Source: an uncultured Acidobacteriota bacterium
GTDB taxonomy: Bacteria; Acidobacteriota; UBA6911; RPQK01
Length of the DNA: 64,000 nt
Assembly (NCBI GenBank): GCA_963744645.1
Contig: CAVUUN010000014.1
Span: 450,110 to 514,109, forward strand
Direction: 5' to 3'
Each line of letters starts with the position of its first letter. Position 1 is the stretch's first letter. The notes beneath the pieces are model-generated. The model saw only the letters and a program-made list of their open reading frames with translations, ran no database searches and was not told where the DNA came from. Made by a program: the position numbers and the translations under genes. This document shows, piece by piece, positions 1,229 through 24,783 of the stretch.

Positions 1229-1229
1229 C

Positions 1230-2055: not shown

Positions 2056-2189
2056 AGTTCGACCATAACCGATTGCCCTTTGTGCGGCAAGCTCCAACCC
2101 GCCGGTCTTCCCGAAACCTCGGACCCTGCCCGAGCGTATTCTGATCAAACGCTCGATTTGAGTTTCACGACGAATCAGGAGAGATACCA

Positions 2190-2777: not shown

Positions 2778-2779
2778 CG

Positions 2780-3256: not shown

Positions 3257-3276
3257 GGACGCGAAAGGCGGCAAGA

Positions 3277-3407
3277 GGCGCAAAGGCATTCACGCAAGAG
3301 ACGCAAAAGGCGCGAGAGAAACGCAAAAGAGAAGCAAAGGACAGACCCGCCTTCCTCTTGCGTTTCTCTCGCGTCTTTTGCGTCTCTTGCGTGAATGCCT
3401 TTGCGCC
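3277..3407. repeat. 131-bp near-perfect hairpin (50-bp arms with 1 mismatch, 31-nt loop) between tlpA-like and argR
   Basis: GGCGCAAAGGCATTCACGCAAGAGACGCAAAAGGCGCGAGAGAAACGCAA ... TTGCGTTTCTCTCGCGTCTTTTGCGTCTCTTGCGTGAATGCCTTTGCGCC read directly. Confidence 0.85.
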
Positions 3408-3487
3408 CATTGCCCCCTCTTGCGCCCCGCCTCCCCACATTCCCCTTGACTTGCTCTCCCCCCTGTATGACCATACACAGTTCCCGT

Positions 3488-3913
3488 ATGGACAAAGAGA
3501 AAAGGCATAAAGCAATTCTCCAAATTCTCACGCATGAAAAGGTGACCAGCCAGGAGCGGTTGCGTAAAAAGCTCGTCAAATCAGGGTTTGACGTGACTCA
3601 GGCCACTCTCTCCCGGGATTTGCGGGAACTGAACGTCATCAAGACGGCGGGCGGCGACGGATCGTATAAGTATACAGTGATGGATCGCTGGATGGGTCTG
3701 CCGATTCGCCGATGCGAGGTCAGCGGGAACCTTTTGGTGGTCTGCACCGATGCGGGAATGGCCCCCGGTGTCGCCTACAAAATCGACGAGTTGAATATCC
3801 CGGGAGTGCTCGGGACTGTTGCGGGTGAAGACACGCTCCTGGTCGTAGTGGGAGAGGATTTCGACGCGCGCGGTGTGAGGAAAGAACTATGGAACAGAGC
3901 AGCCGAACTGTGA
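3488..3913 (+). CDS. argR: arginine repressor
   Basis: MDKEKRHKAILQIL...SQERL...TQATLSRDL winged-helix N-domain plus a C-terminal oligomerisation domain. Sits upstream of argG/argH/argF. Confidence 0.85.
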   Translation: MDKEKRHKAILQILTHEKVTSQERLRKKLVKSGFDVTQATLSRDLRELNVIKTAGGDGSYKYTVMDRWMGLPIRRCEVSGNLLVVCTDAGMAPGVAYKIDELNIPGVLGTVAGEDTLLVVVGEDFDARGVRKELWNRAAEL

Positions 3914-5124: not shown

Positions 5125-5132
5125 GGCAGGCC

Positions 5133-6596
5133 ATGACCAAGCAGCGTTCACCCGTTAAGAAACCCTGGGGAGGCAGATTCAAAGATGCCCTTGATCCCCT
5201 GGTGCGCCAATACACCGCGTCTCTGCATCTGGACCGTCAGCTGGCGACCTATGACCTGCGCGGCAGCCGGGCGCACGTTTCCATGCTCGCCAAGCAAGGC
5301 ATAATCTCGGAGAAAGAGGCGGACCGCATCCTGACTGGCCTCAATGTCATCGAGAAAGAAATCGCAAAAGGGGAGTTCCCGTACCGCGAGGATCTCGAAG
5401 ACATCCACATGAACATCGAGACCCGCCTCCAGGAGCTGGTAGGAGAGGCGGGTAAGAAGATCCACACCGGCCGGAGCCGCAATGATCAGGTTGCCCTTGA
5501 TCTGAAGCTGTTCTGCCTGGACGTGGCACGCGACTGGCAGGGGAACCTCCTCGAGCTCCAAACCAGCCTGCGCGACAGGGCCAGGCAGGCCGGGTCCCAG
5601 CTGTTTCCCGGATGGACGCACCTTCAGGCCGCTCAACCTCTTGGCTGGGCGCACTACCTGATGGCGTTCATGGAGATGTTTTGCCGGGATTACCGTCGTC
5701 TGGACTCCTACGCCGAGTTGCACTCAGTCTGCCCGCTGGGGGCCGGCGCGCTATCGGGCAGCACGCTTCCTCTGGATCCCGAAGAGAGCGCCCGCCAGTT
5801 GCACTTCAAGACCTGCTTCGGGAACAGCTACGACGTCGTCGGTGATCGCGATTTCATCCTCGAGCTTCTCCAGATCGCCAGTCAGTCGATGATTCATGCC
5901 AGCCGGCTCGCCGAAGACTTCATTTACATGTCGAGCACGCCGGTCGGCTGGATCGAGTTGCCTGATTCCCTGTGCACGGGAAGCAGCATGATGCCGCAGA
6001 AGAAGAACCCGGATGTGCTCGAGCTGACCCGGGGGAAGACGGCGCTGGTCCTTGGTCACGCGTCCGGGCTTGCGACCCTGTTGAAGGGTCTCCCGTCCTC
6101 ATATAACCGGGATCTGCAACAGGACAAGGAGCACCTGTTCCACGCGGTGGCGACGACGACCGAAACCCTTGGCATTCTCCCTCTGGTAATCGCCGGATTT
6201 CAGATCCGAAGCGACAAGACGGCGTCGGGACTCAAGCAGGGGTTCCTGATGGCCACGGACCTGGCCGAGTACCTTGTCCGGCGCGGCGTGGCTTTTCGCT
6301 CCGCTCACGAAAAAGTAGGGAAACTGGTGGGTCAGTGCCTGGCTGAGGGCATCGGCCTCGAAGACCTTTCTACAGCGAGGATTAAAGAACTGATTCCGGA
6401 GTGTGACGAAGACGTCTCCGAAGTGCTTTCACCAGAGGGGACGCTTAGTCGCCGAACGCATAAAGGCAGCGCCGGTCTCCAGTCGATCAACGACCAACTG
6501 GCTTTCTGGGACCGGTGGATCGACTCCGAAACGCATCGTTTCACGGAGCCCAGTCGCAGCGGAGTCTCAGGGGAGTTTCGGGGAGAGAATATTTAA
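5133..6596 (+). CDS. argH: argininosuccinate lyase
   Basis: WGGRF N-terminus and fumarate-lyase family signature. The C-terminal 11 codons and the stop lie inside the degenerate MITE copy at 6579-6665. Confidence 0.9.
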   Translation: MTKQRSPVKKPWGGRFKDALDPLVRQYTASLHLDRQLATYDLRGSRAHVSMLAKQGIISEKEADRILTGLNVIEKEIAKGEFPYREDLEDIHMNIETRLQELVGEAGKKIHTGRSRNDQVALDLKLFCLDVARDWQGNLLELQTSLRDRARQAGSQLFPGWTHLQAAQPLGWAHYLMAFMEMFCRDYRRLDSYAELHSVCPLGAGALSGSTLPLDPEESARQLHFKTCFGNSYDVVGDRDFILELLQIASQSMIHASRLAEDFIYMSSTPVGWIELPDSLCTGSSMMPQKKNPDVLELTRGKTALVLGHASGLATLLKGLPSSYNRDLQQDKEHLFHAVATTTETLGILPLVIAGFQIRSDKTASGLKQGFLMATDLAEYLVRRGVAFRSAHEKVGKLVGQCLAEGIGLEDLSTARIKELIPECDEDVSEVLSPEGTLSRRTHKGSAGLQSINDQLAFWDRWIDSETHRFTEPSRSGVSGEFRGENI

Positions 6597-6665
6597 TTCC
6601 CACCCCTTTGCCGGGCCGCCCCGTCGAAGGGAATTGAGCGTTTGGTCAGCGAAATCCCCCAAAAC
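6579..6665. repeat. degenerate MITE-like copy overlapping the argH 3' end
   Basis: GGGGAGTTTCGGGGAGAGAATATTTAATTCCC ... GGGAATTGAGCGTTTGG resembles the termini of the 30-110 element. Confidence 0.5.
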
Positions 6666-6690
6666 TCGGGACGAGAAAACCAACAAGACG

Positions 6691-7668
6691 ATGAAAAACT
6701 CAGGACCTCTGACTGACTTGATCTCTTTGAAGACCTTGACCTCGCTGCAGTGGAAGCAGTTGCTGCGGATCAGCGAGGAGGTCAAACGCCATCCCGCCAA
6801 CTTCCGGCAGATGCTGCCCGGCAGGAGCATCGTCATGGTTTTCGAGAAGGCCTCGTTGCGCACCCGGCTCACTTTCGAGTTGGGAATCAAGCAGCTTGGC
6901 GGAGACGCCGTCTATCTCGATTACCAGGAAGCAAAACTGGGGGGCAGGGAGGCGCTTGTCGACGTCGCGAAGAACATGGAGCGCTGGTTCCACTGTATCG
7001 TCGCCCGAACCTTTTTGCACTCGACGGTCGTCTCGTTGGCCGAACACGCCAGCATCCCGGTCATCAACGCGCTGACGGACGAGGAACATCCCTGCCAGGC
7101 ACTGGCGGATCTGTTCACCCTCGTTGAGAAGTGGAGCGACCCGGCCGGCAGAACCATTGCCTTCGTGGGCGACGGCAACAACGTGTGCGCGTCGCTGATC
7201 CATGCCGCCGCCCTGTGCGGGATGTCCTTCGTGGCCGTCACCCCGGCTTCGCACAAACCCTATGCGGCAGCCGCCGAGGATTTCAAACGGCTCAGCGTGA
7301 ATGAGAATGCCCGCTATTCCTGGACCGAGAGTCTGGCCGACCTGAAGGGCGCAGACGCCGTGTACACTGACACTTGGGTCAGCATGGGCCAGGAAGAAGA
7401 ATCCCGGCTGCGCATGGAGATCTTTGCGCCCTACCAGGTGACCCCGGAAGTGATGGGGCTGACGGGGAAGACGTCCTATTTCATGCATTGCCTCCCCGCG
7501 CACCGGAATCACGAAGTGACCGACTCGGTCATGGATTCCCCGTCATCCCTGGTCTTCGAGCAGGCCGAGAACCGCCTGCACGTCCAGAAAGCCCTGATGC
7601 TCTACCTGCTGGCGCCCCGTGAGGTCGAGCGTTATCTCCATCTCGACAAGTGGGCGGCTTGGGGCTGA
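6691..7668 (+). CDS. argF: ornithine carbamoyltransferase
   Basis: STRTRLTFE-type carbamoyl-phosphate motif, HCLP motif and DxxxSMG. ATG at 6691; the ORF track starts earlier, at 6403. Confidence 0.85.
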   Translation: MKNSGPLTDLISLKTLTSLQWKQLLRISEEVKRHPANFRQMLPGRSIVMVFEKASLRTRLTFELGIKQLGGDAVYLDYQEAKLGGREALVDVAKNMERWFHCIVARTFLHSTVVSLAEHASIPVINALTDEEHPCQALADLFTLVEKWSDPAGRTIAFVGDGNNVCASLIHAAALCGMSFVAVTPASHKPYAAAAEDFKRLSVNENARYSWTESLADLKGADAVYTDTWVSMGQEEESRLRMEIFAPYQVTPEVMGLTGKTSYFMHCLPAHRNHEVTDSVMDSPSSLVFEQAENRLHVQKALMLYLLAPREVERYLHLDKWAAWG

Positions 7669-7674
7669 TGCGCA

Positions 7675-7703
7675 TTGACAGCGGCAGCCGCAAGTGTTAC
7701 TTT
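7675..7703 (+). promoter_or_regulatory. candidate sigma70-like promoter for metK (TTGACA-17-TACTTT)
   Basis: -35 TTGACA at 7675-7680, a 17-nt spacer and a weak -10 TACTTT. The leader is too short for a SAM riboswitch. Confidence 0.3.
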
Positions 7704-7754
7704 TTTCATTTTCTTTAGCCCCAGAATGCTTCTAGGGAGCTGATAAGGAGGAGT

Positions 7755-10186
<2,432 letters not shown>

Positions 10187-10189
10187 AAA

Positions 10190-10290
10190 ACACGGACTAA
10201 CACGGACGACACGGACTGACACGGACGTCTAGCGGCGCTCCGTTTCGGTCCGTGGCCGCCCGTGTCTCATGTTCGTGCTCGTCCGTGCTA
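10190..10290. repeat. tandem ACACGGAC-type units x4 followed by inverted GTCCGTG copies
   Basis: cacggactaacacggacgacacggactgacacggac ... ggtccgtgg ... gtccgtg read directly between ahcY and the rhomboid gene. Confidence 0.8.
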
Positions 10291-10302
10291 TCATTTCTGT
10301 AC

Positions 10303-11043
10303 ATGCGTTACGGCTCTCAGGTTGCCATCGGTCCGTCGCTCACACCGACCGTAAAGATCATCATCCTCGCCAATTGCGCGATCTTTGTCCTCCAGCAGAT
10401 CTTTGGCCCGGTCGTAATTCGGCTTTTCGGCCTGACTCCTGCCCTCGTGCTTTTCGGGCTGTACATCTGGCAGCCCTTCACGTACCTGTTTCTCCACGCC
10501 GGGCTTGGGCATATCCTGTTCAACATGCTGGGGCTCTGGATGTTCGGCTCAGACCTGGAACGTCACTGGGGGAGCAGCCGTTTCCTGCGGTTCTTCTTCT
10601 TTACCGGGGCTGGCGCGGGAGTCTTGTCGGTGCTGGTCCATCCGTACTCCACCGTTCCGACTATCGGAGCGAGCGGCGCGGTTTATGGCATCCTGATGGC
10701 CTTCGCACTGCTCTTTCCCGACCGCATCATCTTCCTGGCATTCCTCCCGCCCATCCGGGTGAAGTACCTGGTGATGATCATGGGGTTCATAGCCTTCGTC
10801 CTCGCGATCGGTCAATCCGGGACGCCGATCGATAACATCGCTCATCTTGGCGGGATGGCCTTTGCTTTCCTGTATGTGAAAGGCTGGGTGTCGCCCGCGT
10901 CCATCCGCGAAAGCATCTTCCGGTGGCGGATGAAACGCCTGCAGCGGCGCTTCAAGGTGTACGAGGGACAACGCGACAAGCCGCGCCCGCGCACTGCGCC
11001 TCGACCGCGAAAAGCCCGCGACGATGATTTCTGGATCAACTGA
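10303..11043 (+). CDS. rhomboid-family intramembrane serine protease
   Basis: Multi-TM protein with a GASGAVYG serine motif and a catalytic His in a C-terminal TM segment (AHLGGM). Confidence 0.8.
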   Translation: MRYGSQVAIGPSLTPTVKIIILANCAIFVLQQIFGPVVIRLFGLTPALVLFGLYIWQPFTYLFLHAGLGHILFNMLGLWMFGSDLERHWGSSRFLRFFFFTGAGAGVLSVLVHPYSTVPTIGASGAVYGILMAFALLFPDRIIFLAFLPPIRVKYLVMIMGFIAFVLAIGQSGTPIDNIAHLGGMAFAFLYVKGWVSPASIRESIFRWRMKRLQRRFKVYEGQRDKPRPRTAPRPRKARDDDFWIN

Positions 11044-11045
11044 GA

Positions 11046-11200
11046 GCTGCGCACTGCGCACTGCGGACTGCGCGACTGCGAACTGCGAACTGCGAACTGC
11101 GCACTGCGAACTGCGAACTGCGCACTGCGCACTGCGGACTGCGTGCACTGCGGACTGCGCCTGAGAACTACCAACTGCGCACTGCCGGCTGCCGGCTGCC
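11046..11200. repeat. heptamer tandem array CGNACTG x~16 plus GCCGGCT repeats
   Basis: cgcactg cgcactg cggactg cgcgactg cgaactg ... read directly. The ORFs 10549..11238(-) and 10842..11207(-) are artefacts of this array. Confidence 0.9.
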
Positions 11201-11262
11201 TTTGCAATCCGTCCCCCGCCTGGATTAAAATTCACCAAAAAGATAGGAATAGTAAGTCTAAA

Positions 11263-11679
11263 ATGAAAATCACGGCCAAGGTCGAGTATGCAGTTCTCGC
11301 CATTTTCGAACTGGCGCTAAGTCCGGGGGATCGCCAGGTGCAGGCGAGGGAGATCGCCGAGAGGCAGAGAATCCCGCTGCGTTTCCTTGAACAGATTCTC
11401 ATTCAGTTGAAAAAGGCCGGCCTGGTGAAGAGTGTGCGGGGTGCGTCGGGCGGATACCTGTTGGCGCGGGGACCGGCCTTGATCAGGCTCAAGGATGTGA
11501 TGGAAGCGGTCGAGGGAGAACTGACCTTGGTCGATCGCTCCGTGGCACCCGGCTCAATCGTTTCAAAGGTGTTCTCTGAAGTTGAGTCGGAATTGCTCGA
11601 TCGCCTGCAATCGGTTTCAATTCAGGACCTGGTTGTCAGACAGCAGCGCGACGACGGGATAGTCTCCTACCAGATCTAG
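11263..11679 (+). CDS. Rrf2-family transcriptional regulator
   Basis: Winged-helix N-terminus (AVLAIFELA...REIAERQRIPLRFLEQILIQLKKAGLVKSVRG) typical of BadM/Rrf2. No Cys ligands. Confidence 0.7.
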   Translation: MKITAKVEYAVLAIFELALSPGDRQVQAREIAERQRIPLRFLEQILIQLKKAGLVKSVRGASGGYLLARGPALIRLKDVMEAVEGELTLVDRSVAPGSIVSKVFSEVESELLDRLQSVSIQDLVVRQQRDDGIVSYQI

Positions 11680-12530
11680 TCAGGAAGTGCGTAAGCGGCT
11701 TTCATGTCTTTGATAGCCACGGCCGTGCGGGCACACACCCGGCAAAACGCGTTGAAATCGAGGCCGAGGCGGGTGTAACAACCCGGGTCCATTTCGAAAT
11801 TCAGGCCCTCGCTTCCCAGTCCGACTCCGATTGTCTTGGCAACGAGGTTCGCCAGCGCCACCGCATCCACGCTCGCAGTGGGGTCGGGTAGCGGCACCTT
11901 GTGATGGCGGGCAATAGCCTCGACCAGGAAGTCTGGAAAACCCCACAGCTCGGCCATCGCCGCACTGACATCGGAGTGATCGTAGCCCAGCAGGCGACGT
12001 TCGGCCTCCGCGAAGGTGACGTTGTCCGTCTGGGCCAGTTGCGAGAGTTCTTTCCCCGAGATCTGCAGAACCCGAACCATCGCAACCTTGCCCACATCAT
12101 GCAGGAGAGCGGCGAGAGTGGCGGACCGGGAGATGTCCTTGCGCGGATTCTCACGAATTGTTTCGATCACGGCCATGGACGCGACTGAACCATGCAGCCA
12201 GAAATCGAGAGCGCTCAGTCCGAAAGGCTCCGCACTCCAGCCGGTGCGCAGGAGATAGTCGGTCAGCAGAGCGTCAATCACGGCACTCAGTCCGAAGCGG
12301 GGAGCGGCGTCGCTCAGTCGCTCGATGGGATACCGCCCGGAGTAGAAGGGCGAGTTGAAAATGCGCAGCAATCGAGCGGAAAGAGCCTCATCGGGCTCGA
12401 TCAGCGCCGAAATCTCGCCTCGCAACTGCTCGTCATCGGCATGCCCTAATTCTCGAAGCAGGCGAGTGACGGCGGCAGGCAGTGGCGCGAATTGTTGGAG
12501 ACTGTCACGGAGTTGGGCAGGAATGGCCAT
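11676..12530 (-). CDS. HDOD-domain signalling protein
   Basis: HD-related output domain pattern (...LLHDVGK...HH...). 284 aa. Confidence 0.65.
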   Translation of the reverse strand: MAIPAQLRDSLQQFAPLPAAVTRLLRELGHADDEQLRGEISALIEPDEALSARLLRIFNSPFYSGRYPIERLSDAAPRFGLSAVIDALLTDYLLRTGWSAEPFGLSALDFWLHGSVASMAVIETIRENPRKDISRSATLAALLHDVGKVAMVRVLQISGKELSQLAQTDNVTFAEAERRLLGYDHSDVSAAMAELWGFPDFLVEAIARHHKVPLPDPTASVDAVALANLVAKTIGVGLGSEGLNFEMDPGCYTRLGLDFNAFCRVCARTAVAIKDMKAAYALPD

Positions 12531-12573
12531 TACATGAACCCCCCGGGGTCCGAAACGACGCCGGAAGGATAAG

Positions 12574-14097
12574 TTGCATTCGCCTCCGCTGTCAACCGAT
12601 TATAATTCGCCGATGATCTCAAGCCGTATGCGGTTTCGAACGGGACAAAAGGCCGGCCTCATCCTCGCCATTGTCCTATGGTCCGCTTCCCTGGCGGCCC
12701 AGCCGGCCAATCTTCGGGGCCGACTCGATGCGCTGCTTGGCGACCCCGCCCTTGGTGCTTCAGTCTGGGGCGCCAAAGTCGTCTCGCTTCCCGGCGGAGA
12801 GATCCTGTACGAGAGAAATGCCCGGTTGCTTCTTGTCCCCGCGTCCAACCTGAAGCTTGTAACCGCCATCGCCGCTATCCGGAGACTGGGTCTCGATTAT
12901 CGATTCACGACGCGGATCGAGACCGATGGCGAGATCAGGGGCGGCGTCCTGCAGGGAAACCTCATCATCAGGGGATCCGGGGACCCCACGCTCGGAGCGC
13001 GGCCTTCGAGTCCGGATCTCGAACACATGGAAGCGGGGAATCCCTGGGAGGCTTTTGACTCCTGGGCGCAGCAACTGAAGGCGCTCGGCATTCATACAAT
13101 CCGGGGCGACCTCGTTGGCGACGACAGCCTACTGGCTCCTGCCGAGCCGAGCCCCGGCTGGGCCTGGGACGATCTGGCCTGGGGATACGCCTCCCCTGCC
13201 GGCGGGCTCCTCTTCAACGAAAACCTGGTTCTTCTTCATGTTGTGACAGGAGAACCGGGATCCGTTCCCCGGTTGGAGATCGTCCCTGATCTTCCCTTTC
13301 TCCAGGTCGTCTCAAACGTCAAGACTGCCCGCGACGGAGAATTGCCTGAAATCCAACTGACACGCGAGGTCGGGGAGAACGTCACGACGGTTAACGGGTC
13401 TGTCCGTCCTTACGCGGACCAGTGGAGGTCGGTGAGTGCCGGCGACCCGACGAGGTACTTCATGTCGGCGCTGCGTCGGGCGATAAACCGGGCGGGAATT
13501 GAGTTGGAGGGGACGGCCCGATTCGCAGGGGACAGAGAACAGGCACCGGCGCGGCTCTTGTTCAGGCACGATTCTCGGGACCTTCGCTACGTCCTTCGTG
13601 TCCTGCTTAAGACAAGTCACAACCTGTACGCCGAGGTACTCGCAAGGATCATCTCGCCGGATCCCAGACGCAAGAGCCTCGAGTCGGGAATCGGGCAGAT
13701 CGAAGAAATGCTGACGGAAGCGGGGCTTGAGGATGATGCTTACTTCATCGTCGATGGATCCGGCCTGTCTCGCTATAACCTCCTGTCCGCGGATGCACTC
13801 ACCGGTCTATTGCGCTACGCGGTCGAGAAGGGCTACGGCCGGGATCTTCGGGACTGCCTGCCGGTCGCGGGAGTGGACGGGAGTCTGAAAGAGCGGCTGC
13901 AGGGCACCGCAGCGGCGGGGAGGGTCTTCGCAAAGACCGGGAGCCTCAAGCACGTGAGAGCCTTGTCCGGCTATGTCGAGGCAAAGGACGGCCGGCTCGT
14001 CGCCTTCTCGATCATCGCCAACAACGTCAGGGCAGACAAACTCAAAGCCGAAACCGTGCAAGATCGTTTCGTGGAGATTCTGAGTTCTGAGTTCTAA
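12574..14097 (+). CDS. dacB: D-alanyl-D-alanine carboxypeptidase/endopeptidase (PBP4, peptidase S13)
   Basis: SxxK (ASNLK), SxN (SHN) and KTG (KTGSL) motifs with a signal peptide. The last 6 codons lie in the heptamer array. Confidence 0.8.
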   Translation: MHSPPLSTDYNSPMISSRMRFRTGQKAGLILAIVLWSASLAAQPANLRGRLDALLGDPALGASVWGAKVVSLPGGEILYERNARLLLVPASNLKLVTAIAAIRRLGLDYRFTTRIETDGEIRGGVLQGNLIIRGSGDPTLGARPSSPDLEHMEAGNPWEAFDSWAQQLKALGIHTIRGDLVGDDSLLAPAEPSPGWAWDDLAWGYASPAGGLLFNENLVLLHVVTGEPGSVPRLEIVPDLPFLQVVSNVKTARDGELPEIQLTREVGENVTTVNGSVRPYADQWRSVSAGDPTRYFMSALRRAINRAGIELEGTARFAGDREQAPARLLFRHDSRDLRYVLRVLLKTSHNLYAEVLARIISPDPRRKSLESGIGQIEEMLTEAGLEDDAYFIVDGSGLSRYNLLSADALTGLLRYAVEKGYGRDLRDCLPVAGVDGSLKERLQGTAAAGRVFAKTGSLKHVRALSGYVEAKDGRLVAFSIIANNVRADKLKAETVQDRFVEILSSEF

Positions 14098-14187
14098 GTT
14101 CTAAGTTCTGAGTTCTGAGTTATCAAACGGGGGCCACCGAACGGTCAACCCCGAACTCCGAACTCCGAACTCAGAACTCAGAACTCC
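14078..14187. terminator. inverted heptamer arrays (TCTGAGT x6 / CMGAACT x5) forming a long hairpin that fills the convergent dacB-rarA gap
   Basis: ttctgagttctgagttctaagttctaagttctgagttctgagtt ... ccgaactccgaactccgaactcagaactcagaactcc. The arms are reverse complements and the element abuts both stop codons. Confidence 0.6.
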
Positions 14188-14190
14188 CGC

Positions 14191-15561
14191 TCACTCTTCT
14201 CCCGGGGCCTTGTCTTTCGCGCTTTTCAGCTTTTCGATCTGGGCGAGGCGCTCTCGAACCCGCTGCTCGAATCCCTGCTCGGAAGGGTGGTAATACCTTC
14301 GCCCGGCCAGATTTTGCGGAAGACAGTCCATCCGGGCAACGCGGTCTTTCTCGTCGTGGGCGTACCGATAACCCTTGGAGTAGCCCAGTTCCTTCATGAG
14401 CTTGGTCGGGGCGTTGCGAAGGTGAAGCGGAACCGGATCGTTGCGGGTTGTCTTGACATCCTCCTGCACACGGCCGTAGGCCACGTAGAGCGCGTTTGAT
14501 TTGGGCGCCTGGGCGAGGTAGACGGCCAGTTGGGCCAGGGCAAGGTTGCCCTCCGGCTGGCCGATAAATTCGACGGCCCGCATCGCGGAAATGGCGTGCG
14601 TCAATGCGGCCGGCTCCGCAAGCCCCACATCTTCCGAAGCGAAGCGGACCATGCGACGAGCGATGTAGAGCGGGTCTTCGCCGGCTTCGAGCATTCGTAC
14701 CAGCCAGTAAAGCGAGGCGTTCACATCACTGTTGCGCAACGATTTGTGGAGGGCCGAGATCAGATTGTAGTGCTCTTCGCCGCCCTTGTCGTAGAGGAGC
14801 ATCCTCCTTTGCACCGCTTCGTCGACCATCTCGGCGGTAATAACGTGGGTCGGGTCATCTTTCTTCAGGGCAAGCTGCGAAGCGACTTCGAGGGCGTTCA
14901 GGGCTATCCGGGCGTCGCCGTTTGCGAAGGCGGCAATGCGCCGCAGCACCTCGTCCTCGGCTGACAATGCCATGGACCCCAAGCCCGCTTCCGGTTCAGC
15001 GAGCGCCCGCCTGAGGATCTCAACGAGATGATCCTCCTCCAACGGCTTCAGGACCAGGACACGGCTCCGTGAAAGGAGCGGCGAGATGACCTCGAACGAA
15101 GGGTTTTCGGTGGTTGCTCCGATCAAGACGACGGCGCCGCTCTCGACATGGGGCAGAAAGGCGTCCTGCTGAGCCTTGTTGAAGCGGTGAATCTCGTCGA
15201 CAAAGAGGATGGTGCGCCGGCCGAAGGCACGCCGCTGGTAATCGGCCTCTTCGACTATCTGCTTGACGTCCTTGACGCCGGCCAGAACCGCACTGATCGC
15301 CGCGAAGTGGGACTGGGTCTCGTTCGCGATGATCCGGGCGAGCGTGGTTTTGCCCACCCCCGGCGGGCCCCAGAAGATCATGGATGAGAGTTGATCGGAC
15401 TTGATCATCTCACGCAGGATCTTGCCTTCGCCCAGGAGGTGGTCCTGTCCAAGCACGTCTTCGATCTTGCGCGGGCGCATCCGCTCGGCCAGGGGCGCGT
15501 CCTTCCTGACGGGCTCTTGCTCGTTGTCGGGTGGTAGCGAGGAAAACAGATCTGGACTCAT
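14191..15561 (-). CDS. rarA: replication-associated recombination protein A (AAA+ ATPase)
   Basis: Walker [10 protein letters not shown] and full-length RarA/MgsA similarity. Confidence 0.9.
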
Positions 15562-16349
15562 GTAAACATCTTTTGCCGGAATATTTCGTACATGATGATT
15601 GAGCCGGCTACAGAAGCGTTCAGACTCTCCGTCTCTTTTCGCATCGGGATGACGATGCGATCGTCGGCGAGCGAATCGACCTCCGGCGTCAGCCCCGCCC
15701 CCTCGTTCCCGATCACTATCGCGTTCGGAGGCACGGGAACCGCGCGGTAAAGATCCACGCCCCCCTCGGTTGAGGTCGCAGTGACGCGGTAACCGCGGTC
15801 CTTCAATTCCAACAGCTCGATGCCCTCAAGGAAAGGCACTGCAAACAGGGACGAAGCGGAAGCGCGCACCACCTTCGCATTGAAACAGGAGACTGTACCC
15901 GGGCTGCAGACCAGGCTGAACATCCCGGTTGCCGCGGCCGTTCGGAACAAAGTCCCCAGGTTTCCGGGATCTTGCAGCTGGTCGAGGTAGATGACCCACC
16001 CGCCGATCTGATCCCAATGCCGGCCTGGTTTGGGGAAAAACGCGACAACCGCCTGCGGCGATTTCACGTTGGAAATCGACTCGAGCAGCCTGGGCGGGAG
16101 GCGAACGGCGTCGACCGCGCGATCGCGCAACTCGGCAATCCGCCGATTCTCGGTATCCGAGTACAGGAGCAATTGGATTTCGTGCTTGATCGCCAGTTCG
16201 CGGATCTGTTTCAAGCCTTCGACGGGCACCCATGGGCAAGCCTCGTCCTCCGGGTGCTTGGAGTAGTTCAACCACAACTTGAAGCGCGGGTTCTGACGGC
16301 TCTCAATGCTGTCAAATGCAGCAGCCACAATGAAATGGTATTCTACCAC
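15558..16349 (-). CDS. SpoU/TrmH-family RNA 2'-O-methyltransferase
   Basis: C-terminal SPOUT motifs (IVIGNEGAGL ... IPM...ESLNASVAGSIIMYE). Confidence 0.7.
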   Translation of the reverse strand: MVEYHFIVAAAFDSIESRQNPRFKLWLNYSKHPEDEACPWVPVEGLKQIRELAIKHEIQLLLYSDTENRRIAELRDRAVDAVRLPPRLLESISNVKSPQAVVAFFPKPGRHWDQIGGWVIYLDQLQDPGNLGTLFRTAAATGMFSLVCSPGTVSCFNAKVVRASASSLFAVPFLEGIELLELKDRGYRVTATSTEGGVDLYRAVPVPPNAIVIGNEGAGLTPEVDSLADDRIVIPMRKETESLNASVAGSIIMYEIFRQKMFT

Positions 16350-16367
16350 GTGGTCGTCACCGAGCCT

Positions 16368-17000
16368 ATGGCCACACGTGCCGTTGATCCTGAACAGCCC
16401 GACTCCGGAATGATTCGGGACGCCGTCCGGGCGGTCAGGGAAGGTAAAGTGCTGCTGTATCCAACGGACACGATTTATGGACTGGGCTGTGATCCTTTCC
16501 TTCCGAGTGCCCTCGGAAGAATCTTCGAACTGAAGGAGCGCCCGGTCGAAAAGGGGGTCCTGCTCCTGGTCGGATCACCGGCTGAAGCGGTGTCCCTGGC
16601 CGCGCGCCTGCCCTCAACTTTCGCGCGATTGTCGGCCCGCTTCTGGCCGGGACCGGTGACGTTTCTGCTCCCGGCGGCTCCGGGAGTTTCCGAACTGGTC
16701 GTCGGTGAGCGGGGCCTCGTCGGCGTCCGGTGTCCCTCTCATGTGTTCCTCAACCGTTTGCTGGATGAGCTCGCCCGCCCTCTCGTCTCCACGAGTGCGA
16801 ACATTTCCGGGGAACCGCAGCCACCGTCAATAGCGGATTTGCGGCGCCTGTTTGAAGGAAAGGTCGACCTGTTCCTGGACGCCGGTGAGCTGCCCACGCG
16901 CCTGCCCTCCAGCGTAGTCGATTTGAGCGTCGATCCACCCCGGCTGGTGCGGCGGGGCGCACTGGCGGCCGAAATCGAACAGGTGCTGAAAGACCGCTGA
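16368..17000 (+). CDS. tsaC: L-threonylcarbamoyladenylate synthase (YrdC/Sua5 family)
   Basis: YrdC fold motifs (LLYPTDTIYGLGCDP, STSANISGEP). ATG at 16368 follows the end of the upstream minus-strand gene. Confidence 0.8.
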   Translation: MATRAVDPEQPDSGMIRDAVRAVREGKVLLYPTDTIYGLGCDPFLPSALGRIFELKERPVEKGVLLLVGSPAEAVSLAARLPSTFARLSARFWPGPVTFLLPAAPGVSELVVGERGLVGVRCPSHVFLNRLLDELARPLVSTSANISGEPQPPSIADLRRLFEGKVDLFLDAGELPTRLPSSVVDLSVDPPRLVRRGALAAEIEQVLKDR

Positions 17001-17056
17001 CCAGCTGGCCGACGTCTTCCCTTGGCGGCGAAGCGTCGCTGAACACACACATGTCA

Positions 17057-17213
17057 GTGAGCGAGCTCAAGGGGCGGGAAAGGTATGTAGTCCCGCCTCA
17101 GGCGGCGTAACCGTAAGCGAGATCATGGCGGTCCGGGCGCGCTCGCATCGTCGAGCTTGCCGACCCGTTCGGCCGGCTCAAGCCGGGACTACATACCTCT
17201 CTCGGGGCTCGAG
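17057..17213. repeat. family-D repeat: ~32-bp core (CTCAAGGGGCGGGAAAGGTATGTAGTCCCGCC) present as an inverted pair
   Basis: The 17066-17097 core pairs with the reverse complement at 17182-17213. A solo copy lies at 31720-31770. Confidence 0.7.
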
Positions 17214-17264
17214 TGCAGTCATCTGGCGCGTTTCTTGGAGGCCAACCGGTTCGCGGGACTCCCG

Positions 17265-17299
17265 TCAGTTGTCAGTTGTCAGTCGTCAGTCGTCAGCGC
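17265..17299. repeat. heptamer tandem array GTCAGTY x5 overlapping the 3' end of the XdhC-like gene
   Basis: gtcagtt gtcagtt gtcagtc gtcagtc gtcagcg read directly. Confidence 0.8.
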
Positions 17300-18149
17300 T
17301 TTTAGCCTTCGCAATCTGTTCCATGACGAACTGCTGTTTCTCGCTTCGCTTGTGGACGCCTTTCCGGATCGCGATCATCTCGGCAACCACTGCCACCGCA
17401 ATTTCTTCCGGTGTTTCGGAACCGATTTCGATCCCGATCGGTGCGTACAGATTCTTGAACAGATCGGGCGTCCATCCTTTGTCGAGCAGGCTTTGAACGG
17501 TCATCACGATTTTCCGGCGGCTGCCCACCATCCCGACATAGCGGGCACCCGTGTGAACCGCCAGGCCGAGGGCGATCTGATCCCAGCGATGGCCGCGAGT
17601 GACCATCAGAAGGAAGCTCTCAGAGTTGATTCGCAGTTCATCCAGTGGGGCGTCAAATGCCCGGCAGACGACGTCGACCTTAGGTGAGAAGCGAGCCGGA
17701 TTCGCAAAGGACTCCCGATCGTCGATCACGCTGACGTCGAAGCCGACAGTCAGGGCCAGATCGGCTATGGCAACGCCGAGATGTCCCGCGCCGAAAACGA
17801 CGAGTCGCGGGTCCGGAAGGACAGGTTCCACGAAGACCTCCAAGATTCCGCCGCAGATGAAGCCTTCCTTTTCGGCGTCTTCGTTAGTCAGCTCATACTT
17901 GAGCAGGCTCGACAATCCGGTGGTGATCGCTTCCTGCCCTTTGCGGCAGACGTCGGCTTCAACGCCGCCACCGCCAACCGTGCCGATGATCGTACCGTCG
18001 GCAAAGACCAGCATCTTGGCGGTGTCTTTTCGCGGAGTGCTCCCCGACTGACTGACCACGGTGGCCAGGGCTACTCGCCGCCCTTCTCTCCGCGCCCTGA
18101 GGATCTCCTCGTAGATGTCCGGTCGCTGTTTCCGTCCCGCTTGATGCAT
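17286..18149 (-). CDS. XdhC/CoxI-family (molybdo-dehydrogenase accessory) protein
   Basis: Two-domain XdhC-like architecture with a Rossmann-like GAGHLG segment. Confidence 0.6.
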   Translation of the reverse strand: MHQAGRKQRPDIYEEILRARREGRRVALATVVSQSGSTPRKDTAKMLVFADGTIIGTVGGGGVEADVCRKGQEAITTGLSSLLKYELTNEDAEKEGFICGGILEVFVEPVLPDPRLVVFGAGHLGVAIADLALTVGFDVSVIDDRESFANPARFSPKVDVVCRAFDAPLDELRINSESFLLMVTRGHRWDQIALGLAVHTGARYVGMVGSRRKIVMTVQSLLDKGWTPDLFKNLYAPIGIEIGSETPEEIAVAVVAEMIAIRKGVHKRSEKQQFVMEQIAKAKSADD

Positions 18150-18155
18150 CAGCTG

Positions 18156-19583
18156 TCAGACTCTCTCTTTGGCTGCCGCTTGGGCTACCTTACGGCGGTT
18201 TAGATGACTCTTTCGGAAACCGTACGCGACATAGATTATCAACCCGGCGGCCATCCAGACGAAAAGTCGCCACCAGGTCACGGCGGGAAGGCTGTACATC
18301 AGATAGAAGCACGCAAACATGCCCAGGATGGGGACGACCGGGAATAGCGGCGCCTTGAACGGCCGCGCAATATCGGGTCGCGTGTAGCGCAGCACCAAGA
18401 CGCCGCCGCAGACAATGGCGAAGGCCAGCAGTGTTCCGATGCTGACCAGGTGGCCGAGCTCATGGATCGGCGCCAGCCCGGCGACGATGGCCACGGAAAC
18501 ACCGGTGACGGCCGTGGTGATGTATGGGGTCCTGAAGCGCGGATGCACTCTGCTGGCGATCTCCGGCAAGAGACCATCCTTGGACATGCTGTAGAACACG
18601 CGAGGCTGGCCGAGCAGCATGACCAGGATAACCGAGGTGATACCGGCGATGGCGCCGAGCGAAATGAAGACCGAAAGCCAGGGCATGTCGAGCGCCCGGA
18701 TGGCAAGCGCAATCGGGGCGGGAACGCCAAGCTGCGGGTAGTAGACGACACCAGTGAGCACGGCCGCGACAGCGAGGTAGAGGACCGTGCAAACGACCAG
18801 CGAGGTGAGAATGCCGATCGGCATATCCCTCTGTGGATTGCGTGCCTCCTGGGCGGTGGTGCTCACCGCATCGAAGCCGATATAGGCGAAGAAGATGACG
18901 CCCGCTCCGGTGACCATCCCCGACACGCCGAAAGGCATGAAGGGGTGCCAGTTAACAGCTTTGACATAGGGAGCCGCTACGGCGAGGAACAGCAGGACGA
19001 CCCCTACTTTGATGATCACGATCGTCGCGTTTACGTTCGCCGATTCCTTGATTCCGATGATCAGGATGACGGTCAGGAAGAGACAGATGGCGGTTGCCGG
19101 GATGTTGAAGACCCCGGCCGGCTCGCTCCAGGGCGAGGCAGACCATCTCGCGGGGATGTCGACTCCCAGGCTTCGGAATATCTCCACGAAGTACCCGGAC
19201 CATCCCACGGCGACGGTTGAGGCGGCGAGCGAGTATTCGAGGATCAGGTCCCAGCCGATGATCCAGGCGAAGAGCTCTCCCATGGTGGCGTAGGCGTAGG
19301 TGTATGCCGATCCGGACACCGGGATCATCGAGGCGAATTCGCTGTAGCACAGGCCGGCAAACACGCAGGCCGCGCCGGCCAGTACGAAGGACAGGATGAT
19401 CGACGGCCCCGCGTGCTCCGCAGCCGCCGTTCCCGTGATGACGAAAATGCCGGCGCCGATGATCGCCCCAATGCCGAGCGTCGTGAGCTGAACCGGTCCC
19501 AGCGTCCGCTTCAAGGTCACGCCCGAATCCGCCTCGCTCAGAATCTCCTCGACTGGTTTCGTCTGGAATAGCCGTTTTAACAT
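18156..19583 (-). CDS. APC-family amino acid permease
   Basis: 12-TM profile and an N-terminal amino-acid permease signature ([17 protein letters not shown]). Confidence 0.85.
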
Positions 19584-20666
19584 CTATTTGTGACTCTCTT
19601 TCAGGATATAGGTCGGCTTGCCCTGGGACTCGTGGTACGTCCGGATGATCAATTCAGCGACGAGCCCGAACAGGATGAACTGAACACCAACGATGAAGAA
19701 GAAGATGGACAGCAGGAGCAGCGGGTTTCGATGGGCTTTTACCGCCCAAAAGAACTTCTGATACAGGGTTGCCGCCGCCAGCAGGCCGCCTCCGGCGAAA
19801 GACAGGAAGCCCAGACCGCCGAACAGGTACATTGGCTTGGTCGAGAAGCTCCCCAGGAACTTGATCGTGATCAGGTCGAGCAGCACTTTGAAGGTGCGGA
19901 AGATGCCGTACTTGGATCGCCCGAACTTCCTTGGATGGTGACGGACTGGGATCTCCACGACCCGGGCCCCCGCCCAGAAGGCGTAGATCGGGATGAACCG
20001 ATGCATCTCTCCGTAGAGGCGGATGTGCTTGACGACATCCTTCCGGTAACCTTTCAAAGTACAGCCGTAGTCGTGAAGCCGAACCCCGCTGATGCGGCTG
20101 ATCACCCAGTTGGCTATGTGCGAGGGGAAGACGCGGGTCAGCCACGGATCTTGCCGATCCTTGCGCCAGCAACTCACCACATCGTACCCTTGCGCGATGG
20201 CCTCGAGTATCCGGGGAATGTCATCCGGATCGTTCTGCAGGTCGGCATCAAGCGGAATGATGACTTCGCCGCGTGCGTGGCTGAAGCCGGCCGACATTGC
20301 CGCCGTTTGTCCGAAGTTACGCACGAACTCGAGAACGGAGACAGTGTTGTCAGACCGCTCCAGATCGCGCAGGATCCGGGTGCTCCCGTCAATGCTTCCG
20401 TCATCCACGAAAAGGATCTCGTACGGTCGCTGGAGCTGATCCAAAGCACTCTTCAGTCGCGCATACAGTGGCTGCAGATTCTCCCGCTCGTTGAACACCG
20501 GGACGACGATCGATACGTCAGGTTCGATCACGTTTGTTTGTTGGTTGGTTGGTGATGAGGTAGATGGAACGGATCCAGGGGTAACGCTTGTTTCGATTTC
20601 CGCCACGTTTGAAACCTTCAAGGAAAATACGCGCCGTAGTATATAACTTCGGTCGCCGATCAACAA
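19584..20666 (-). CDS. GT2 polyprenol-phosphate glycosyltransferase (ArnC/GtrB-like) with C-terminal TM helices
   Basis: IVVPVFNE...DDGSxDGS...DADLQNDP GT2 motifs. The ORF overlaps the upstream GT-C gene by 149 bp. An in-frame GTG at 20531 (NVIEPDVSIVVPVF) would cut the overlap to 14 bp. Confidence 0.8.
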   Translation of the reverse strand: MLIGDRSYILRRVFSLKVSNVAEIETSVTPGSVPSTSSPTNQQTNVIEPDVSIVVPVFNERENLQPLYARLKSALDQLQRPYEILFVDDGSIDGSTRILRDLERSDNTVSVLEFVRNFGQTAAMSAGFSHARGEVIIPLDADLQNDPDDIPRILEAIAQGYDVVSCWRKDRQDPWLTRVFPSHIANWVISRISGVRLHDYGCTLKGYRKDVVKHIRLYGEMHRFIPIYAFWAGARVVEIPVRHHPRKFGRSKYGIFRTFKVLLDLITIKFLGSFSTKPMYLFGGLGFLSFAGGGLLAAATLYQKFFWAVKAHRNPLLLLSIFFFIVGVQFILFGLVAELIIRTYHESQGKPTYILKESHK

Positions 20667-24674: not shown

Positions 24675-24698
24675 CCGGGTACTTTAGCAAAAAGCGAA

Positions 24699-24780
24699 TT
24701 TCGGGGACATAATACTTAATTCCCTCCCCGTTACTGAGCGGTCTCCGTTGGCAAAGGAATTAAGTTTTGTGTCCCCGAAA
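24699..24780. repeat. MITE-like element copy 3, in the mutS upstream region
   Basis: Termini identical to the copies at 30-110 and 37858-37939. Confidence 0.8.
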
Positions 24781-24783
24781 TTC

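Follow-up and report, generated by a model that had tools for sequence, protein, structure and literature searches.

The gap between the convergent genes dacB and rarA is filled by two tandem heptanucleotide arrays in inverted orientation, which raises the question of what kind of element this is, and whether it belongs with the other short-period arrays of the window (the whole stretch of DNA analysed here, 64,000 nucleotides). The nearest relatives of the source genome are Acidobacteria MAGs, and our analysis covered about 72 kb of sequence from this lineage, reaching past the window on one side. The earlier note had described two inverted arrays pairing into a ~40-bp hairpin, abutting both stop codons, with the first array encoding the end of DacB, and each of these points was borne out. 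The arms are 40 nt each, 85% complementary and 25 nt apart, and the RNA fold of 14078-14187 reached -59.8 kcal/mol (z = -8.05), a stability attained by 0 of 200 shuffles. The dacB stop TAA (14095-14097) falls in the third unit of the left array, so that the array encodes the residues ..(I)LSSEF* of DacB, while at the other end 3 nt separate the right arm from the rarA stop (14191). In an alignment of the DacB family, the C-terminal tail is weakly conserved and is replaced here by the array-encoded residues.

To place this element among its neighbours, we used Tandem Repeats Finder (TRF) together with a scan of repeat periods across the window (Table 1). The earlier note had counted at least nine sites of tandem 7-mers, each with a different unit. 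TRF placed an array at all of these sites, and a clean period of 7, with 4.6-19.6 copies per array, was present at six of them (1229, 11047, 14078/14147, 17263, 51385/51432 and 59805); the site at 10190 has a period of 9-10, that at 24784 a period of 8, and at 36566 unit lengths of 6, 7 and 8 nt occur together. Two further features had escaped notice, the period-9 inverted pair at 3257-3427 and the period-8 array at 1466-1488. The units are not all different: GGAATGC, the one recurrent heptamer unit, is common to sites 1229 and 59805, the 51385 unit GGATTGC is GGAATGC with one base changed, and the 24784 unit GGAGACR is the reverse complement of the 36566 unit GTCTCCY. At least five unrelated units are nonetheless found among the six heptamer sites.

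The excess of period 7 over other periods and over chance stood up clearly. Ten period-7 segments were detected at the six sites, against 0.11 expected for 64 kb under an order-3 Markov null (100 simulations; highest simulated count, 1), and every other period from 2 to 21 yielded 0-2 segments. This head-to-tail iteration beyond compositional expectation places the arrays in the class of long SSRs with a 5-11 bp unit. Because the units differ between sites, as does their composition in the mRNA sense (from G-rich via C-rich to U-rich), the property common to the arrays is period and position, not sequence. CTGA and GGA recur among the units, in a sample too small and with an alignment too flexible for the claim of a single shared motif. 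Two-copy heptamer "seeds" outside the arrays showed no excess (2, with 4.5 expected), which leaves the origin step of the arrays unseen.

Table 1. Repeat arrays of the window and the genes flanking the dacB-rarA element, with position, strand, basis of the assignment and context.
Feature	Start	End	Strand	Basis	Context
Direct heptamer array CGGAATG/GGGAATG, 5.9 copies, unstructured	1229	1269	+	TRF, fold	Begins at first base past stop of radical-SAM (CofH/MqnC-like) gene (149-1228)
Period-8 array GTCAGCTG, 2.9 copies	1466	1488	+	TRF	Overlaps stop codon of minus-strand isochorismatase gene
Long hairpin, period-9 inverted pair ACGCAAGAG / CTCTTGCGT	3257	3427	+	TRF, fold	Begins at first base after AhpC-family stop; argR start at 3488; -112 kcal/mol, z = -16
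Period 9-10 array ACACGGACK(A), 4 copies, with degenerate inverted partner	10189	10290	+	TRF, fold	2 nt past AdoHcy hydrolase stop; occupies whole gap up to rhomboid gene
Longest heptamer array, ACTGCGN, about 20 copies, then CTGCCGG, 2.7 copies	11039	11200	+	TRF	Rhomboid stop TGA inside degenerate first unit
dacB (PBP4, Peptidase_S13)	12628	14097	+	Domain/protein matches	Stop codon within left array
Left arm: heptamer array TTCTGAG/TTCTAAG, 6.3 copies	14078	14121	+	TRF, arm pairing, translation	
Spacer (loop), 25 nt	14122	14146	.	Arm pairing, fold	Small G+C-rich local stem inside
Right arm: AACTCCG/AACTCAG, 5.9 copies	14147	14187	+	TRF, fold	Reverse complement of left arm
rarA/mgsA (RuvB_N, AAA, MgsA_C)	14191	15561	-	Domain matches	Convergent with dacB
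Direct heptamer array CGTCAGT/TGTCAGT, 4.9 copies, unstructured	17263	17296	+	TRF, fold	Overlaps stop and last codons of minus-strand xdhC-like gene
Short period-8 array GGAGACRN, about 3.4 copies	24784	24811	+	TRF	No stop codon adjacent; adjoins dispersed palindrome 24695-24784
Pyrimidine-rich array GTCTCCY, about 12 units of 6-8 nt	36569	36665	+	TRF	10 nt past asnB stop, upstream of tsaB
Inverted heptamer pair GCGGATT, 4.6 copies / CAATCCG, 4.7 copies	51381	51468	+	TRF, fold	Arms 40 nt, 93% complementary; in 23S-5S spacer, 6 nt short of 5S rRNA
Direct heptamer array GGAATGC, 6.6 copies, unstructured	59805	59849	+	TRF, fold	Begins within stop codon TAG (59803-59805) of TamB/Omp85-like gene

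The position of the arrays follows the stop codon. Their offset from it was 0-10 nt in 6 of the 7 gaps having slack (Fisher combined p = 1.4e-5), and the stop codon often lies inside the first, degenerate unit. Stop triplets on the sense strand are present in 6 of 10 units, where 16% would be expected (p = 0.002, post hoc); both the anchoring test and the triplet test were defined after inspection of the data. By a rough count, arrays occupy 3 of about 6 convergent gaps and 6 of about 25 co-directional ones. It had been claimed that the arrays often form inverted pairs exactly filling convergent gaps. This holds for the dacB-rarA gap; the only other heptamer pair (51385) lies between the 23S and 5S rRNA genes, the further inverted pairs have periods of 8, 9 and 10, and asnB and tsaB, which flank the 36566 gap in this order, point the same way, so that "often" was too strong. 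The general rule is anchoring at the stop codon, not convergence, and proximity to the stop is the robust feature.

We compared the arrays with those of a sister strain (ENA ERZ25039545, contig_27112), to which the window aligns at 99.3-99.6% identity across 53 kb. At 6 of the 7 heptamer sites compared, the two strains differed in the number or order of units, by about one to five units per variable site. Copies in the window and in the sister strain were 5.9 and 4.9 at site 1229 (exactly one unit fewer in the latter), 19.6 and 14.6 at 11047, 6.3 and 4.7 at 14078, 4.9 and 3.9 at 17263 (again one unit fewer) and 6.6 and 3.6 at 59805; at 36569 the units are rearranged, while the 51381-51468 pair and the 3257-3427 hairpin are identical. 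The arrays, which make up 2% of the bases, hold 63 of the 145 differing alignment columns, a density 37-fold higher than outside, and all indels of at least 4 nt in the 53 kb lie in arrays except one insertion of 121 nt, a mobile palindrome. Length polymorphism between the related genomes is thus unit-sized, although exact array lengths may include assembly error, because both assemblies carry 1-nt indels inside genes. The mutS gene has an extra C near 23385; if this is genuine, the strain may be a mismatch-repair mutant. The comparison of lengths between strains had been suggested beforehand, together with a role of the arrays as hotspots of replication slippage; the former, run against this one strain, speaks for the latter.

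Such indels, which break genes in both long contigs, and the tendency of short-read contigs to break at repeats are also what might be held in favour of the arrays being artefacts of assembly or sequencing. We regard this as scarcely credible: the same arrays stand in the same places in two independent assemblies, DacB with its array-encoded tail is also recorded on a Logan short-read contig, and arrays like these are present in numerous unrelated metagenome contigs from short reads. As a background set we used 80 unrelated metagenome rarA loci (522 kb), drawn from a RarA search as relatives at 63% identity or less. Period 7 was again the commonest, with 12 arrays; several of these overlap stop codons, and one inverted pair fills its gap.

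Our preferred reading, to which we assign a probability of about 0.6, is that the arrays are hypermutable, slippage-driven SSRs with units of 7-10 nt biased towards 7, tolerated just past stop codons. Whole units are gained and lost between near-identical strains, and the arrays are almost confined to the untranslated spacer from the stop codon onward. MutS copes with loops of about 4 nt at most, and slipped-strand loops of 7-10 nt would exceed the size range of mismatch repair. As 7 cannot be divided by 3, arrays would be purged from coding sequence and would be harmless just past the stop; a unit carrying a stop triplet would, moreover, provide an in-frame stop within three units whatever the copy number. 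Deletion bias would strip other neutral spacer, and self-renewing arrays would therefore end up filling the gap exactly. This explanation gives no reason for 7 over 5, 6 or 8.

Slippage alone also leaves part of the inverted pairs unpredicted. Two arrays in inverted orientation form hairpins of 40-70 bp, and the copy in the rRNA spacer shows that they are transcribed. Complementarity between the arms remains at 85-93% even as the units are replaced. A relative with about 85% identity likewise has a hairpin in the AdoHcy-hydrolase gap, formed by a period-9 inverted pair whose unit differs from the one here in both arms. Slippage by itself predicts neither the kept complementarity nor this persistence, which points to selection or to copying from arm to arm; template switching between the arms, or selection for a 3' structure, could account for a hairpin that outlives the turnover of its units.

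These observations bear on the reading that the inverted pairs are selected RNA structures, either bidirectional terminators lacking a U-tract or exonuclease barriers at the 3' end, which like REP elements would stabilise the mRNA upstream; the direct arrays would be their source material or halves left by decay. In favour of this reading, the hairpins have high stability (z = -5 to -16 across the inverted pairs) and begin 0-3 nt after stop codons, and the one between dacB and rarA remains about as stable in the sister strain (-57.8 kcal/mol there) despite changed units. Furthermore, the relative at about 85% identity has a classical terminator, a stem followed by a T-run, in the rhomboid gap where the 20-unit array at 11047 stands here, and the array may have taken over a function. 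Against this reading, the interior units of the two arms have diverged independently of each other, and over half of the arrays have neither partner nor structure: the direct arrays fold with z = -0.1 to +2.3, and structure was absent in five arrays (24784 excluded from folding). The folds of the sense and antisense strands are equally good (-112.2/-111.5, -52.2/-54.1, -57.7/-62.5 and -59.8/-64.3 kcal/mol), which gives no sign of selection on the RNA and no G-U signature; the idea of sense-RNA selection acting through G-U pairs was rejected on this ground. On balance, we consider selected structure rather unlikely.

The more specific proposal that the hairpins act as terminators found no support. 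An intrinsic (Rho-independent) terminator combines a G+C-rich stem-loop with an immediate U-tract, and the hairpins here all lack a T-run behind them, whichever strand is read. A consensus terminator scan returned 10 sites, against 17.6 in shuffled sequence, and placed none at an array, so that canonical terminators at the arrays were discarded. The 51381-51468 pair, moreover, lies inside the rRNA operon just before the 5S gene and must be transcribed through. The hairpins are most likely passive 3'-end or processing structures rather than intrinsic terminators; the hairpin pairs may perhaps stabilise mRNA, a role that the earlier note had also mentioned. At the families' gathering scores, a scan of the window against Rfam 15 matched the 16S, 23S and 5S rRNAs only, with no RNA family at the arrays. 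The pyrimidine-rich array at 36569 is unstructured (z = +2.3); we had considered that it might hide the tsaB Shine-Dalgarno sequence, and dismissed this in view of a fold without such pairing and of a tract that is unusually unstructured.

The same tract is among the evidence for another reading, in which the arrays are platforms for protein binding or non-B DNA (an IHF/HU-type protein, a CsrA-like GGA binder, Rho loading on the C-rich array, or a G-quadruplex of the kind considered for Xanthomonas). Binding by an IHF/HU-type nucleoid protein has been proposed for the Geobacter pairs. GGA is present in several units (CGGAATG, GGAATGC, GCGGATT and ACACGGAC), the 1229 units fit the Xanthomonas pattern (GGGANTN)n on the coding strand downstream of an ORF, as in Xanthomonas, and the 36569 array, right after a stop, is the strongest C-over-G unstructured tract of the window, holding its most C-over-G-rich 80-nt stretch, a composition resembling that of a rut site. 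However, the units differ and their composition runs from G-rich to U-rich, so that no single binder fits all, and copy number is unstable between strains. G-quadruplex formation was rejected, the G3 tracts being too few: compared with G-rich heptamers of the GGGAATC/(GGGANTN)n type, with at least four such tracts, the 1229 array has only two G-runs of three or more, which excludes a canonical G-quadruplex, the 59805 array has GG only, and the remaining units bear no relation to this type. We hold a binding platform to be very improbable. That the period is shared and the sequence is not argues for a period-dependent cause and against a sequence-specific binder.

Dispersed palindromes share these intergenic regions, family A at 1291-1433 and 59869-59992, and family B in four copies. 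Within the window both families display the repeated imperfect palindrome of REP/REPIN elements. The inverted pairs might accordingly have spread as a mobile palindromic element, similar to REPINs or MITEs: the two kinds of repeat are neighbours, one copy of family A (59869-59992) is absent from the sister strain, and the family A end GCGCGGATT resembles the GCGGATT and GCGGAAT units. Yet no two array pairs have the same unit and each is single-copy in the window, we saw no presence/absence polymorphism of whole pairs, the number of units alone changing, and the 59805 array is kept in the sister strain without the adjacent family A copy. Mobility of this kind is hence a highly improbable source of the pairs. 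Stable 3' intergenic hairpins, convergent gaps included, are a likeness to REP, BIME and REPIN elements and to intrinsic terminators; unlike the pairs described here, REP is one sequence family copied many times without tandem units, and terminators have a short stem and then the U-tract that is absent here.

The earlier note had also drawn an analogy with the STRR repeats of heterocystous cyanobacteria. STRR consist of few fixed units dispersed in many copies; to our knowledge they are confined to heterocystous cyanobacteria, and we know of no description of them that includes stop-codon anchoring or hairpin pairs. The analogy is sound as regards heptanucleotide tandem arrays in non-coding DNA with no assigned function. 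It breaks down over the small fixed set of units, given the at least five unrelated ones found here with only GGAATGC recurring, and over the host, whose nearest relatives include no heterocystous cyanobacterium. For Calothrix PCC 7601, the literature cites three different tandemly repeated heptanucleotides of the STRR type.

Closer parallels are provided by Xanthomonas and Geobacter metallireducens. Rehm et al. 2015 (PMC4692102) describe G-rich heptamer SSRs, GGGAATC in Xanthomonas and GGGGAYT in Nostoc, and cite a 2007 survey for the over-representation of heptanucleotide long SSRs in prokaryotes. About 90% of the Xanthomonas arrays are intergenic, lying on average 28 nt past the upstream ORF and much farther from the downstream one; 70-75 inverted two-array cases able to form stem-loops are reported for arrays of the Xanthomonas/Nostoc type, rare between divergent genes, and in Xanthomonas length and sequence vary widely between close relatives and species, with no assigned function (PMC4692102). 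The arrays in the window likewise have period 7, an intergenic position near the upstream 3' end (offsets of 0-10 nt), inverted pairs and variable length, and besides the fit of the 1229 units, the 59805 unit GGAATGC resembles (GGGANTN)n. In contrast, one unit dominates genome-wide in Xanthomonas, chosen for G-quadruplex potential, whereas units here differ from site to site and most are not G-quadruplex-capable; the arrays here start at or inside the stop codon, in an uncultured, Acidobacteria-like host. In G. metallireducens, Aklujkar et al. 2009 (PMC2700814) report paired repeats of GTTGCTYN (x4), TCTCCGTS(Y) (x3) and MTYCTGA (x5) as classes 1-3, multicopy families of 8-24 pairs with fixed unit number, read as binding sites of a global regulator. 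Units of 7, 8 and 9 nt and opposite-strand intergenic pairs (there, for example, proB/proA) are shared with our arrays, and class 3 MTYCTGA and the GTTCTGA unit here differ by one base. Within the 64 kb, each pair is unique in sequence and its copy number varies.

MacGregor 2015 (PMC4679880) describes a further heptamer, TAACTGA, as direct repeats of 2-43 copies in Beggiatoaceae, Cyanobacteria and Bacteroidetes, mostly a few nt upstream of start codons, with one inverted case and a proposed role in translational regulation. Its intergenic direct repeats and a unit with stop triplets recall our arrays, and the sequence resembles CAACTGA/CGACTGA, which is the 17263 unit as read in the mRNA, as well as the CTGAGAA array of metagenome locus L017; there, however, one unit serves genome-wide, upstream of starts. 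The earlier suggestion that such arrays are undescribed for this kind of genome thus needs qualification: no report from Acidobacteria was found in the literature searched, and a similar anatomy has been published for Xanthomonas and G. metallireducens (PMC4692102, PMC2700814). The arrays are a further example of a known, unexplained class of bacterial repeats and not a new kind of element.

A bolder alternative would make the class a selected, widespread "frame-proof gene-end module" rather than a neutral product of slippage. A unit that is not a multiple of three, seeded on a stop codon and repeated, would put stop triplets in all three frames, and paired arrays would set a large hairpin against the terminating ribosome; neighbouring and convergent genes might thereby be insulated from read-through translation, and termination or 3' decay tuned. 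If true, such a module would unify the heptamer repeats of Xanthomonas, Geobacter, Beggiatoa, cyanobacteria and Acidobacteria; we judge it improbable.

The over-representation of heptanucleotide repeats in many bacteria has been a puzzle since it was noted in 2007, and this lineage offers a useful natural case, with stop-anchored arrays and unit-scale turnover between two near-identical strains. A DacB search of genome contigs returned one useful relative, whose contig ends inside dacB, and an exact-protein look-up gave no match for RarA, the radical-SAM gene at 149-1228 or the ORFs at 31806-33272 and 63090-63716. The arrays could become strain-typing markers for uncultured Acidobacteria. They interrupt short-read assembly, and they alter predicted C-termini, the two strains having a DacB of 489 aa and 551 aa, respectively one each.

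We scored tandem repetition over the whole window as self-similarity at lag p for periods 2–21, using an order-3 Markov model as the null. Period 7 gave 10 segments at six sites (null mean 0.11, never more than 1), and each of the other periods gave 0–2. The excess of heptanucleotide repeats proposed in the earlier note, over other periods as well as over the null, is real within the window and statistically strong. Tandem Repeats Finder also detected an array at all nine coordinates listed in that note, although period 7 holds at only six of them, the remainder having periods of 9–10 (10190) or 8 (24784) or mixed 6–8-nt units (36566). Nor does each site carry its own unit: several are unrelated, but GGAATGC is common to the arrays starting at 1229 and 59805, the 51385 unit lies one base from it, and the 24784 unit is the reverse complement of the 36566 unit. 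Two elements had been missed: at 1466–1488 an array of period 8, and at 3257–3427 an inverted pair of period 9 that folds at -112 kcal/mol (z = -16).

The position of these elements relative to genes, whose identities come from Pfam scans and gene calls on sister-strain loci, is detailed in the table. The array at 24784 is the only one without an adjoining stop codon. Compared with random placement, stop anchoring gave a Fisher combined p = 1.4e-5 for the seven elements with room to move in their gap, in a test defined after the data had been seen. No divergent gap of the window holds any of the arrays. The feature common to the arrays is the stop codon, not convergence: the suggestion that inverted pairs fill convergent gaps is correct for 14078, but only two heptamer sites are paired, and the other lies between the 23S and 5S genes.

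Tandem arrays and hairpins of the window: position relative to genes, and copy number in the window and in the sister strain
Feature	Coordinates	Position	Copies, window	Sister strain
Array	1229	First base past stop of radical-SAM gene	5.9	4.9 copies, exactly 7 nt fewer
Array	1466–1488	Stop of minus-strand isochorismatase gene inside		
Hairpin	3257–3427	First base past AhpC-family stop		
Array	10189	AdoHcy-hydrolase stop, then 2 nt		
Array	11047	3 nt past rhomboid stop; stop inside degenerate first unit (ACTGAGA vs ACTGCGA)	19.6	14.6 copies
Array, left arm	14078	dacB stop inside	6.3	4.7 copies
Array, right arm	14147		5.9	Equal length; two substitutions shifting unit variants
Right-arm end	14187	3 nt to rarA stop (TCA on plus strand, 14191–14193)		
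Array	17263–17296	Stop of minus-strand xdhC-like gene inside	4.9	3.9 copies
Array	36569	asnB stop, then 10 nt; gap co-directional		Unit order rearranged
Second heptamer pair	51381–51468	23S end 51309, 5S start 51475		
Array	59805	Begins within TAG of TamB/Omp85-like gene	6.6	3.6 copies

The element at 14078–14187, between dacB and rarA, proved to be as first described: two inverted arrays forming a hairpin of about 40 bp that abuts both stop codons. Its left arm reads GAGA-(TTCTGAG)2-(TTCTAAG)2-(TTCTGAG)2-TT and is followed by a 25-nt spacer, and its right arm reads AA-CCCCGAA-(CTCCGAA)2-(CTCAGAA)2-CTC (both period 7 by Tandem Repeats Finder). The arms are 40 nt each and 85% complementary, with an RNA fold of -59.8 kcal/mol against -32.5 ± 3.4 in shuffles (z = -8.05). 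Because the dacB frame (..GTG GAG ATT CTG AGT TCT GAG TTC TAA) enters the array, the terminal (I)LSSEF and the stop codon come from it, as had been claimed for the last six DacB residues; in the family alignment, the array stands in for a weakly conserved C-terminal tail of some 6–8 residues. The left-arm change in the sister strain deletes the in-frame stop, so that DacB is called there with 551 aa instead of 489. Despite these unit changes, the hairpin keeps its stability (-57.8 kcal/mol).

The sister strain, represented by a 754-kb ENA contig (ERZ25039545 contig_27112) that is the source of loci L004, L005, L086 and L087, is 99.33% identical over window positions 2595–24298, 99.62% over 32319–53493, 98.7% over 42944–59872 and 94.9% over 59994–63922. 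In sister-strain locus L004, 63 of the 145 differing alignment columns fall within 446 array bases of 21,704, a 37-fold enrichment. Across 53 kb, all indels of at least 4 nt lie in arrays, except for one 121-nt palindromic insertion; neither the period-9 pair nor the pair in the rRNA spacer differs between the two strains. These unit-sized copy changes bear out the view of the arrays as slippage hotspots. Single-base indels split genes in both assemblies (argininosuccinate lyase and S-adenosylmethionine synthase in L004; mutS and TamB/Omp85 in the window), so array lengths may err by about one base; the differences between strains are unit-sized.

Several further observations concern the assemblies. 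The minus-strand mutS (22178–24674) forms two ORFs owing to an extra C at ~23385 and is intact in the sister strain; the split reflects an assembly error or, alternatively, a genuine mismatch-repair defect, and the latter, if real, would bear on repeat instability. 1-nt indels interrupt the TamB and POTRA/Omp85 fusion gene (53756–59805), leaving at least six ORFs, and its sister-strain counterpart is an intact 2009-aa gene (L005 10828–16857); this suggests either that long-read errors remain uncorrected in the window assembly or that the gene is a pseudogene there. Between 58000 and 62500, sister-strain identity falls to ~95%, against 99.3–99.6% elsewhere, indicating local divergence or recombination over a segment with the end of the Omp85-like gene, a glycosyltransferase and a radical-SAM gene.

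The earlier note had offered slippage hotspots and terminators among the likely roles, of which the second is not supported. The inverted pairs do form long hairpins (z -5 to -16), including the rRNA-spacer pair (93% complementary; -57.7 kcal/mol, z = -10.7). No T-run follows any hairpin, and a consensus terminator scan of bases 1–20000 returned 10 candidates versus 17.6 in shuffles, with none at arrays. At least one hairpin, the pair preceding 5S, must be transcribed through. Folding is as stable for the antisense as for the sense strand, so wobble pairs give no sign that the transcribed strand has been under selection. The direct arrays at 1229, 17263, 36569 and 59805 are unstructured (z -0.1 to +2.3), and 11047, despite a self-complementary unit, reaches only z = -2.4. 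In mRNA sense, 1229 and 59805 are G-rich, 36569 and 24784 (minus strand) C-rich and 14078 U-rich; the 36569 array is the window's most C-over-G-rich 80-nt stretch. The arrays are without any common RNA property.

Near these elements, a non-repetitive inverted repeat (17066–17213; 33-nt arms, 79% complementary, 82 nt apart) sits in the convergent Sua5-XdhC gap, adjoining the 17263 array. The complete rRNA operon (16S, 23S, 5S) spans 46595–51591, and its 230-nt 16S-23S spacer (48116–48345) is without a tRNA gene.

Array length is hypervariable, changing by whole units, and the arrays lie almost only in stop-proximal untranslated spacer and are heterogeneous in sequence. We infer that they may be products of slipped-strand events. 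MutS copes with loops no larger than about 4 nt, so slipped loops of at least 7 nt would escape mismatch repair. Since 7 is not divisible by 3, such an array would be purged from coding sequence and be neutral past the stop. A stop triplet occurs in 6 of 10 units against 16% expected, a post hoc count; with units of this kind, translation would meet an in-frame stop in at most three units at any copy number, which would explain arrays overlapping last codons. Deletion bias stripping other neutral spacer would account for the exact filling of gaps. For the arms to stay complementary, something further would have to act: strand switching templated by the hairpin, or selection for a 3' structure. 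None of this accounts for the preference for 7.

The nearest named relative, the Acidobacteria MAG RPQK01, has 78% DacB identity (next homologues ~45%) and 80–85% nucleotide identity to the window. Its AdoHcy-hydrolase gap holds an inverted tandem pair of period 9 directly past the stop, with unit ATAGGACNA versus ACACGGACK in the window; flanking genes align at ~85%, and conserved alignment columns are far scarcer across the hairpin. In its rhomboid gap, a classical 13-bp stem with GCTTTT takes the place of the window's 20-unit array; this terminator (L001 2531–2580) reads AAAGACGGTCATC-GTG-GATGACCGTCTTT-GCTTTT. In the sister strain, ~3.6 kb before the window begins (L087 6211–6375), a period-8 pair (CCGGCTRA x8 / GGTCAGCW x8; -92.7 kcal/mol, z = -6.3) exactly fills a convergent M20-M64 peptidase gap, and its unit matches the 8-mer at 1466–1488. 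Among 80 unrelated metagenome loci with rarA homologues (522 kb, identity ≤63%), the commonest period was again 7, with 12 arrays (1.5 per 64 kb, versus 10 in the window). Several of these cover an upstream ORF stop or fill a gap, and one inverted AGCTACT/AGCTAGT pair stops 4 nt short of the rarA ATG (-76 kcal/mol, z = -6).

Comparable repeats have been documented. Xanthomonas GGGAATC arrays are 89–93% intergenic, have mean distances of 28 nt to the upstream ORF and 160 nt to the downstream one, form 70–75 inverted pairs, are rare between divergent genes and vary in length among species, with no function found (Rehm et al. 2015, PMC4692102). The cyanobacterial precedent is STRR. Geobacter metallireducens has paired intergenic tandem 7-, 8- and 9-mers on opposite strands, including MTYCTGA x5 (Aklujkar et al. 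2009, PMC2700814), and TAACTGA arrays were described by MacGregor 2015 (PMC4679880). The window arrays differ from these precedents in their site-specific units, tight stop-codon anchoring and new host lineage. They lack the defining features of STRR, the G-quadruplex heptamer class, REP elements and intrinsic terminators, and share those of the general long-SSR class. The window repeats belong to a known, still unexplained repeat class; in agreement with the earlier note, the literature search found no paper pairing Acidobacteria with heptanucleotide repeats.

Two dispersed palindromes are distinct from the arrays. Family B, at 25–115, 24695–24784, 37854–37940 and 38002–38030 (three complete copies and one partial), reads TTTCGGGGACATAATACTTAATTCC ... 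GGAATTAAGTTTTGTGTCCCCGAAA, with arms of ~26–30 nt and a ~32-nt gap, and had no Rfam match at gathering score. Family A (core GCGAAGTGCGCGGATT, arms 54–62 nt) occurs at 1291–1433 and 59869–59992, with a related copy at 24949–25190. At two sites it lies 20–30 nt downstream of GGAATGC-type arrays, whose units its ends resemble. The copy at 59873–59993 is missing in the sister strain and so reflects recent insertion or excision of a MITE/REPIN-like element. One short-read contig of this organism (L088, Logan ERR10755943, 1977 nt) begins within a family A palindrome and stops 50 nt inside the period-9 hairpin, and a Logan DacB contig (ERR15459711) ends 58 nt past the dacB stop; these elements fragment short-read assemblies.
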